This document shows positions 45,127-45,888 of a DNA stretch of 64,000 nt, piece by piece (position 1 is the first letter of the stretch; the number at the start of each line of letters is the position of its first letter). The notes under the pieces were generated by a model. That model had not been told where the DNA came from and made no database searches. It saw only the letters and a program-made list of their open reading frames with translations. Source of the stretch: a phage; the sequence record NC_135731.1. The stretch is one strand, 5' to 3'. The translations under genes and the position numbers were made by a program.

Positions 45127-45888
45127 ATGCGACGACTGATTATTATCTCCGGTGCTGGTTTGAGCGCTGAATCTGGTATCCCCACCTTCCGATCTGGTAG
45201 TACAGCAATGTGGGAGAATTTTAGCATCGATGAGGTATGCAACATCCACACCTTTGCCAAGAACTACGACAAGGTGCACGCATTCTATAATGCACGCCGT
45301 GCAGCTTTAGGGGGTGTTGAACCAAATATTGCCCATCTCCGCATCGCAGAATGGTATTCTCGTTGGTCTGGGCGTGTGATTAATCTTACAACCAACGTAG
45401 ATGATCTCTTGGAGCGTGCTGGTGTTAAACATGAAGATATCTTACATGTCCATGGGTATTTGCCTGAAATCACCTACGAAGATGCTGAAGGTAACGATGT
45501 AATTAAAAATATCGGATACACTGAGGTAGATACAGGCAAGTATATCTGGGTTAAGCCTAATGTGGTGTTCTTCGGAGAAGTAGCTCCGAAGTATACAGAC
45601 ATGTATGACCTGTTGACTTCTCTCACGAGCAATGATATGGTAATCCTGGTAGGTTGTTCTAACACAGTTATTAATTTTAACTGGGAATTGTTTCCTGCTA
45701 CTTGTAAAGGCACAAAACTGCTGATTGTAAACAAGTATGATTCGCAGAGTGCAGATGGAAGTGGCATTTCACGTAGCGACCTTTATCAATATGAGGATCG
45801 CGGGATCCCTGTATGGTTTAACGGTGCTGTTGACGCTTTCTCTGATAAAGCATTTATTGAAACTGTAGAAAACTTTATGGAACTGTAA
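45127..45888 (+). CDS. Sir2-family (sirtuin) NAD-dependent protein
   Basis: sirtuin signatures GAGLSAESGIPTFR, TTNVDDLLERAG, HG, VVFFGE. Confidence 0.75.
   Translation: MRRLIIISGAGLSAESGIPTFRSGSTAMWENFSIDEVCNIHTFAKNYDKVHAFYNARRAALGGVEPNIAHLRIAEWYSRWSGRVINLTTNVDDLLERAGVKHEDILHVHGYLPEITYEDAEGNDVIKNIGYTEVDTGKYIWVKPNVVFFGEVAPKYTDMYDLLTSLTSNDMVILVGCSNTVINFNWELFPATCKGTKLLIVNKYDSQSADGSGISRSDLYQYEDRGIPVWFNGAVDAFSDKAFIETVENFMEL

Follow-up and report, generated by a model that had tools for sequence, protein, structure and literature searches.

The stretch of DNA analysed here (hereafter the window) comprises 64,000 nucleotides (nt) of phage sequence record NC_135731.1, and we report on a sirtuin (Sir2) gene that lies in it among predicted RNA-repair genes. 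The gene encodes a zinc-less protein of a phage-specific clade which, judging from sequence comparison, is derived from sirtuins of the CobB/SIRT5 type (class III) and not from the NAD-consuming Sir2 enzymes of antiphage defence. Our tentative reading, to which we give somewhat less than an even chance, is that the protein consumes nicotinamide adenine dinucleotide (NAD+) as one part of a phage system for repairing broken RNA (probably tRNA).

The Sir2 open reading frame (ORF) runs from an ATG to a stop codon and is preceded, 7 nt upstream of its start, by a Shine-Dalgarno-like sequence (GAGGA). Its product carries the motifs GAGLS (residues 9 to 13), FR (21 to 22), TTNVDD (88 to 93), and HVHG (107 to 110), within a set of key residues comprising G9-A10-G11, S16, F21-R22, Y54/R57, N90/D92, H109 (codon at 45451-45453), F149-G150-E151, G176/S178, and N202. 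The protein was matched by the Pfam SIR2 family (PF02146) with 97.3 bits (cutoff, 24) over profile positions 1 to 178 of 180 and by PHROG 2162 [“Sir2 (NAD-dependent deacetylase)”] with 362 bits, a sequence match far beyond chance. Profile, NAD-site and catalytic residues, and fold all place it in the sirtuin/Sir2 superfamily. A first-pass annotation, made from the nucleotide sequence alone, had proposed a complete sirtuin with an intact signature and a catalytic histidine, encoded by a virulent phage, and had named the Pfam SIR2 profile as a check; the motifs stand where it placed them, the profile covers essentially the full domain, H109 is invariant in 40 homologues, and the phage is a Vequintavirus, so that this part of the proposal holds.

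Homologues were aligned (n = 40; 50 to 61% identity to the query, plus one 91% relative among them), and G9, A10, G11, S16, F21, R22, N90, D92, H109, G110, F149, E151, G176, S178, and N202 were invariant. Because the NAD-site and catalytic residues are invariant, the enzyme is, on sequence grounds, almost certainly active, and a pseudogene or inactive enzyme is ruled out by the same conservation. Equally invariant in the 40 homologues is the Y54-x-x-R57 pair, which sits in an FYNARR segment aligning with FYNARR of CobB. In class III sirtuins such as SIRT5 and CobB, this pair binds an anionic group and recognizes succinyl and malonyl modifications.

The AlphaFold model of the protein, built with the 40 homologues, was confident (predicted local distance difference test [pLDDT], 89.8; predicted template modelling score, 0.88), with weaker parts at the cofactor-binding loop (residues 23 to 27) and an insertion around residues 201 to 220. 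Its best Foldseek match was Escherichia coli CobB (template modelling scores, 0.77/0.86), with Archaeoglobus Sir2-Af1 also among the best superpositions, and the closest solved proteins by sequence were E. coli CobB (PDB 1s5p; expect value [E] = 1e-22, or 1e-29 with a profile of the clade), SIRT5, and Archaeoglobus sirtuins. With CobB and SIRT5 the phage protein shares the GAGxS, FR, N/D, and H-G motifs, the FGE loop, and the Y-x-x-R pair (sequence E = 1e-22 to 1e-30), but identity is only about 26 to 27%, and the NCBIfam CobB equivalog cutoffs (NF040867, NF001753, and related models) were all missed (125.1 versus 243, 105.1 versus 320, and 95.6 versus 318).

Several further departures from CobB and SIRT5 characterize the clade. 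The first-pass annotation had expected zinc-binding cysteines, which are absent: the query has Cys38, Cys177, and Cys193 only, with no CxxC pair, and none of the 120 closest homologues has the four-cysteine zinc site. This loss sets the clade apart from canonical sirtuins, although the Pfam SIR2 family does not demand the motif; the counterpart of the zinc region (residues 110 to 146) was modelled as a confident three-stranded sheet (pLDDT, 93 to 96). The TQNID motif reads TTNVD, its glutamine being replaced by an invariant threonine (T89), and an invariant V-I-N-F-x-W segment takes the place of the V-(Y)-P loop that contacts the substrate after G-x-S. Cys38, also invariant, aligns with the CobB acyl-pocket residue A76. 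The protein is acidic (isoelectric point [pI], 4.9; net charge, −12), as is the clade (median pI, 5.1; net charge, about −12). Finally, the gene sits in an RNA-repair operon.

Features of this operon and of the adjoining genes are collected in Table 1. All six neighbours match families of RNA end healing and sealing or of nucleotide pyrophosphatases, which bears out the earlier placement of the gene among RNA-repair genes. The first-pass annotation had set Sir2 between an RNA ligase and a MazG-like pyrophosphatase; both are nearby, but the cREC gene separates the ligase from Sir2, and the MazG-like call comes from PHROG 671 and a sub-threshold PRA-PH match, with no Pfam family above threshold and no NCBIfam or PDB match for that protein. 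Spacing is tight throughout (the ligase stop overlaps the cREC start, the cREC-Sir2 gap is 8 nt, and the Sir2-MazG-like gap is 14 nt), the hairpin after the MazG-like stop is terminator-like and likely marks the end of a four-gene operon, and BASEL phage Bas56 annotates the same gene order.

Table 1. Sir2 gene and neighbouring features in the window (aa, amino acids)
Feature	Coordinates	Strand	Evidence and remarks
Calcineurin-like metallophosphoesterase, 184 aa (MKYFVTSDTHF...)	42766..43320	-	Pfam Metallophos_2 and Metallophos; PHROG 547 “phosphoesterase” (6e-53)
P-loop polynucleotide-kinase-like protein, 135 aa (MSKML...)	43328..43735	-	Pfam AAA_33, 41.4 bits; PHROG 2071 and PHROG 505 “polynucleotide kinase”; divergent from the RNA ligase
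Rnl1-type (T4 RnlA family) RNA ligase, 311 aa	43836..44771	+	Pfam RNA_lig_T4_1 (PF09511), 54.5 bits; PHROG 562 (1e-65); operon gene 1
cREC (cyclic-phosphate processing receiver-like), 116 aa	44768..45118	+	Pfam cREC_REC (PF20274), 52.3 bits; PHROG 1479
Sir2/sirtuin, 253 aa	45127..45888	+	ATG-to-stop ORF; zinc-less, phage-specific clade derived from CobB/SIRT5-type sirtuins
MazG-superfamily-like nucleotide pyrophosphohydrolase candidate, 237 aa	45903..46616	+	PHROG 671 “nucleotide pyrophosphohydrolase” (1e-21); sub-threshold Pfam PRA-PH (E = 0.077); last operon gene
GC-rich hairpin, 7 bp (6 GC)	46623..46640	+	Consensus scan, pattern match only; weak T-tract; directly after the MazG-like stop

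The RNA ligase has a candidate nucleotidyl-lysine motif, KKNG, at residues 96 to 99, and an acidic motif (WLDDFRD) stands at the N terminus of cREC. The cREC family is predicted, and predicted only, to be a cyclic phosphodiesterase acting on RNA 2',3'-cyclic phosphates and/or ADP-ribose 1'',2''-cyclic phosphate (PMC9503650). The counterpart of the P-loop kinase in phage AlexBoehm is annotated as a polynucleotide kinase, and the metallophosphoesterase is a candidate RNA 3'-end healing phosphoesterase. Searches of PDB sequences with the RNA ligase, cREC, and MazG-like proteins returned nothing usable, cREC being without a solved relative there, and a scan of the six neighbouring genes revealed no macro domain. 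Further along, at 47243-48526 of the window, an ATP-dependent DNA ligase is encoded 1.4 kilobases (kb) downstream of Sir2. A cluster of seven tRNA genes (39017-39829) lies 4 kb upstream, and an Rfam scan of 38800-47500 found tRNAs only.

The Sir2 ORF is 100% identical to that of Escherichia phage phiWec196 (LC739542; Vequintavirinae), where it is annotated as a hypothetical protein, and 117 other rV5-like (Vequintavirinae) records carry it at 80 to 95% identity; among the matches listed, most rV5-like records annotate Sir2, CobB, or a sirtuin-domain deacetylase. Relatives were detected by tblastn in 1,012 of 50,697 phage records (about 2%), including T5-like, Mydovirus-like, and Phapecoctavirus-like phages, large Vibrio phages, and jumbo phages. 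The T5 copy, T5.102, is 57% identical over its full length, and it and the Sir2/CobB proteins of Vibrio phages KVP40 and phiSt2 belong to the same phage clade as the protein of the window. Between 18 and 25 records named Campylobacter phage (MG0656xx; C9, C11, C12, C14, C15, A141, and others) carry the rV5-like region at 93 to 100% identity and are probably mislabelled or contaminant assemblies.

Neighbourhoods were surveyed at 62 IMG/VR loci encoding members of the clade, with iterative searches using the neighbour genes of the window. The set of RNA ligase, kinase, phosphoesterase, MazG-like protein, and DNA ligase recurs in rV5-like and Mydovirus-like phages and in related contigs of about 145 kb; these phages are related to one another and count as roughly one lineage. 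In the Mydovirus-like loci L023 to L026, L028, L031, and L059, the ATP-dependent DNA ligase directly follows Sir2 (at +776 nt, counted from the start of Sir2), and across the rV5/Mydovirus supergroup Sir2 is linked to the DNA ligase as tightly as to the RNA ligase.

The T5 locus differs in its neighbours (HAD_SAK_2, DUF7415, and NrdD). There, T5.102 is co-operonic with T5.105, a protein of PF18143 (“HAD domain in Swiss Army Knife RNA repair proteins”), a pairing present in 28 T5-like loci. Two tandem DUF7415 proteins (T5.106 and T5.107; 8651-9481 of locus L064) follow the Sir2-HAD_SAK pair and recur in 31 T5-like loci. On a 279-kb jumbo phage contig (IMGVR_UViG_3300001199_000001; L061, 7721-9198 and 11000-12642), Sir2 is flanked by a DUF4326 protein and a nucleoside 2-deoxyribosyltransferase-like protein, and the RNA-repair nucleotidyltransferase RlaP and a Thg1-like tRNA 5'-end repair enzyme are encoded no more than 4 kb from it. 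A 608-kb contig encodes an Rnl1 ligase 2.4 kb upstream of its Sir2 homologue. Vibrio-type and other loci have NAD-salvage genes: NAMPT directly upstream of Sir2 in L060 (6057-7493), and a NAPRTase-family protein with a phosphoribosyl pyrophosphate (PRPP) synthetase in L062 (3031-6335), adjacencies that fit recycling of the nicotinamide released by a sirtuin. A bona fide MazG is also near Sir2 in L062, and MazG-like homologues recur near Sir2 in other loci. Phapecoctavirus-like loci have uninformative Sir2 neighbours (a C5 methylase and DUFs).

Much of this picture has been published. Three phage sirtuin neighbourhood types were described by Iyer, Burroughs, Anantharaman, and Aravind (2022, Viruses 14:1977; PMC9503650), of which type 2 (“Escherichia phage V5/Proteus phage Mydo”) comprises a sirtuin, a T4-like RNA ligase, cREC, a nucleotide kinase, and a MazG-superfamily protein, with or without a calcineurin-like phosphoesterase and without a macro domain, and type 3 (phage SP15, T5-like) pairs the sirtuin with a HAD “Swiss-army-knife” phosphatase. 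Those authors proposed that the sirtuin strips 2'-phosphates from RNA with NAD+, as KptA/Tpt1 does, and that its partners resolve cyclic phosphates or process ADP-ribose cyclic phosphate (PMC9503650). The locus of the window is an instance of type 2, with the same virus group and gene set and no substantive difference: all five partners lie within 2.4 kb of sequence, the MazG assignment being the weaker one (PHROG only). Gene family, zinc-less character, exact neighbourhood, and mechanistic hypothesis are all known from earlier publications and GenBank annotation. Added here to type 2 are the clade-wide absence of the zinc cysteines, the change of TQNID to TTNVD, the replaced V-x-P loop, the acidic pI, the operon boundaries, and the RlaP/Thg1 and NAMPT contexts; the RlaP/Thg1 context of the jumbo contig falls outside the three published types. 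A literature search for laboratory studies of phage sirtuins turned up just two computational treatments (PMC9503650 and PMC5107563) and otherwise papers on host-defence Sir2; no experimental characterization of a phage sirtuin was found.

We infer the following steps for the module, after Iyer et al. (PMC9503650). A host ribonuclease would cut RNA to leave 2',3'-cyclic phosphate and 5'-OH ends; the cyclic phosphate would be opened by cREC or the metallophosphoesterase, the 5' end would be phosphorylated by the kinase, and the break would be sealed by the RNA ligase. A residual 2'-phosphate would then be taken off by the sirtuin with NAD+, by analogy with KptA/Tpt1: a phosphate oxygen would attack C1'' of NAD+, nicotinamide would leave, and the histidine-activated 2''-OH would yield ADP-ribose 1'',2''-cyclic phosphate, a by-product that could be degraded by cREC, the phosphoesterase, and the MazG-like pyrophosphatase. 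In our own estimation, a phosphate nucleophile and this product would suit the two-step mechanism of sirtuins, in which a nucleophile attacks C1'' and the histidine-assisted 2''-OH attacks next.

This RNA-repair reading is favoured because an intact enzyme shares its operon with heal-and-seal enzymes, and because non-homologous but functionally equivalent partners recur in unrelated phages. The partner classes (cyclic phosphodiesterase-like, phosphatase, and pyrophosphatase) mirror those that process the Tpt1 by-product, and the macro domain, the usual partner where O-acyl-ADP-ribose or ADP-ribosylated protein is made, is absent from the neighbours scanned (argument of PMC9503650). The invariant Y54/R57 pair, as a binder of anionic groups in class III sirtuins, also speaks for this reading. 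Co-occurrence of Sir2, KptA, and cREC was judged from organism counts and the matches listed, not from full record lists. The organism counts place the cREC-positive phages (342 records) inside taxa that are also Sir2-positive. Homologues of E. coli KptA were found by tblastn in 98 phage records; neither in their organism counts nor among the matches listed was there an Escherichia or Salmonella phage, an rV5-like or T5-like phage, or any overlap with the Sir2-encoding coliphages. These counts for cREC and KptA fit the RNA-repair picture. KptA/Tpt1 is the proposed functional analogue, consuming NAD+, releasing nicotinamide, and occurring in RNA-repair contexts with cyclic phosphodiesterases and phosphatases (PMC9503650), but it has an ADP-ribosyltransferase fold in contrast to the Rossmann-type fold of the sirtuin, with no homology between them, and 2'-phosphotransfer by a sirtuin is a prediction only.

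A more far-reaching form of the same reading is put forward slightly more cautiously still. In it, the zinc-less phage sirtuin would be the first RNA-acting sirtuin, an NAD+-dependent 2'-phosphotransferase that displaces Tpt1/KptA non-orthologously and, with cREC displacing the 2H cyclic phosphodiesterase, would provide Trl1-like heal-and-seal tRNA repair in about 1,000 genomes of coliphages and enterobacterial phages, T5 included, rather than acting as a protein deacylase. A less likely variant has the sirtuin deacylate N-acyl-aminoacyl-tRNA or the catalytic lysines of the adjacent ligases. The first-pass annotation had suggested an offensive or counter-defence role; this is plausible as repair of nuclease-damaged RNA, but its option of removing an ADP-ribosyl mark is unsupported, no macro domain having been found in the neighbours scanned. 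Removal of such marks is the chemistry of macro, ARH, or NADAR proteins and not that of sirtuins.

A number of points weigh against RNA repair. Healing of the T4 style before Rnl1 ligation leaves no 2'-phosphate, and Rnl1 ligases need no such partner, because by organism counts many Rnl1-encoding Pseudomonas and Streptomyces phage records are without matching Sir2 or KptA counts. Conversely, T5-like phages are largely without this ligase (Salmonella phage records, 14 with the ligase versus 289 with Sir2). Gene order within the rV5 supergroup reflects common descent and is no independent evidence, and several lineages have NAD-salvage or uninformative neighbours instead. Sirtuins have a narrow acyl-lysine tunnel, the ancestral pocket being shaped for a lysine side chain, and a ribose 2'-phosphate within a polynucleotide differs greatly from such a substrate; protein deacylation is the activity of all the closest relatives. 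The acidity of the protein (pI 4.9, versus 9.4 for E. coli KptA) is unfavourable for RNA binding, a weak argument, and net charge is not decisive, the RNA and DNA ligases of the phage itself being mildly acidic too.

The main rival, which we consider rather unlikely, is that the protein resembles CobB in function and is an NAD+-dependent lysine deacylase (a deacetylase, desuccinylase, or the like) that strips acyl groups from host or phage proteins during infection. The best matches of the protein in sequence and structure (CobB, SIRT5, and Sir2-Af1) all have this activity, the residues needed for it, including H109, F149 of the FGE loop, and Y54-x-x-R57, are all invariant, and an acidic surface suits basic protein substrates. 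Skliros et al. (2016; PMC5107563) argued for such a role in the homologues of Vibrio phages phiSt2 and KVP40, reported that these lack zinc ligands, and proposed that they deacetylate host enzymes such as acetyl-CoA synthetase (Acs). Besides Acs, candidate targets are the catalytic lysines of the RNA and DNA ligases of the phage, and protection of ligase lysines fits the ATP-dependent DNA ligase being as near to Sir2 as the RNA ligase in rV5-like and Mydovirus-like loci. Against it, scores fall far below the cutoffs of all the CobB equivalog models, the V-x-P loop and the zinc module that shape the peptide cleft are replaced clade-wide, the canonical glutamine of TQNID is an invariant threonine, and the host already has CobB. 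A deacylase would also leave unexplained the recurrent linkage to differing RNA-repair and phosphate-processing genes in unrelated lineages.

Improbable, in our assessment, is an ADP-ribosyltransferase that tags a protein or the ends of nucleic acids (5'- or 3'-phosphates of RNA or DNA), a tag with which ends might be shielded or labelled ahead of ligation or a host factor altered. ADP-ribosylation of 5'-phosphate ends is a further activity of Tpt1 enzymes, and this activity, like the RNA and DNA ligases and end-processing enzymes nearby, would agree with end tagging; however, no macro or other ADP-ribose-removing partner was found among the neighbours scanned, and the retained catalytic histidine agrees with a two-step reaction in which the 2''-OH takes part.

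Lower still we rate manipulation of the NAD+ pool, an option of the first-pass annotation, or of an NAD-derived signal; the protein would then be an NADase or exchange enzyme that shuts down host metabolism or interferes with NAD-based immunity. The NAMPT, NAPRTase-family, and PRPP synthetase genes that adjoin Sir2 in L060 and L062 speak for it, as does the role in NAD+ hydrolysis with which the KVP40 homologue was first described, as cited in PMC5107563. But such salvage adjacency is equally expected for any nicotinamide-releasing enzyme, depletion of NAD+ would harm the phage, and the RNA-repair neighbours would go unexplained. With the defence Sir2 NADases (Thoeris ThsA, DSR1/2, Sir2-HerA, SPARSA, and Avs5) the protein has the superfamily fold and the NAD+ substrate in common, but it is otherwise unlike them: a search of the PADLOC defence profiles returned no significant match, and the combination of a defence-profile match with a fused or adjacent sensor or partner domain was not found. 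A toxin-antitoxin pair of the SirTM type (a macrodomain-linked ADP-ribosylating sirtuin) is ruled out by the lack of a macro domain among the neighbours scanned, and SirTM is not the closest relative of the protein.

If the RNA-repair prediction is true, RNA phosphates would join acyl-lysines as targets of sirtuin chemistry; T5, rV5, and the Vequintavirinae of BASEL would gain an NAD+-dependent RNA repair against host anticodon nucleases and other RNA-cutting defences; and NAD+-depleting immunity would also disable phage RNA repair. If the protein is a deacylase instead, viral remodelling of acyl-lysines in the proteome of the host or of the phage, which is seldom seen, would gain an example. 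In both cases the Sir2 gene is widespread and occurs in tractable phages. A positive 2'-phosphotransferase result would be notable. The locus itself is an annotated gene in a published neighbourhood.

Two further features of the window lie outside the operon. A 253-aa ORF at 49203-49964 (+), downstream of an endolysin-like gene, is likely a mobile insertion; the equivalent position in phage AlexBoehm is annotated as a putative homing endonuclease. Within the tRNA cluster, a tRNA-like gene of 97 to 99 nt (39262-39360, − strand; Rfam tRNA, 37.5 bits) was reported by ARAGORN as “tRNA-???” with a 4-base anticodon. Its anticodon arm reads AGGAT-TTTTA-ATCCT (5-nt loop) and its extra arm is about 25 nt long; the AlexBoehm counterpart is annotated as tRNA-Lys(AAA), and the gene may encode a non-canonical or decoy tRNA.

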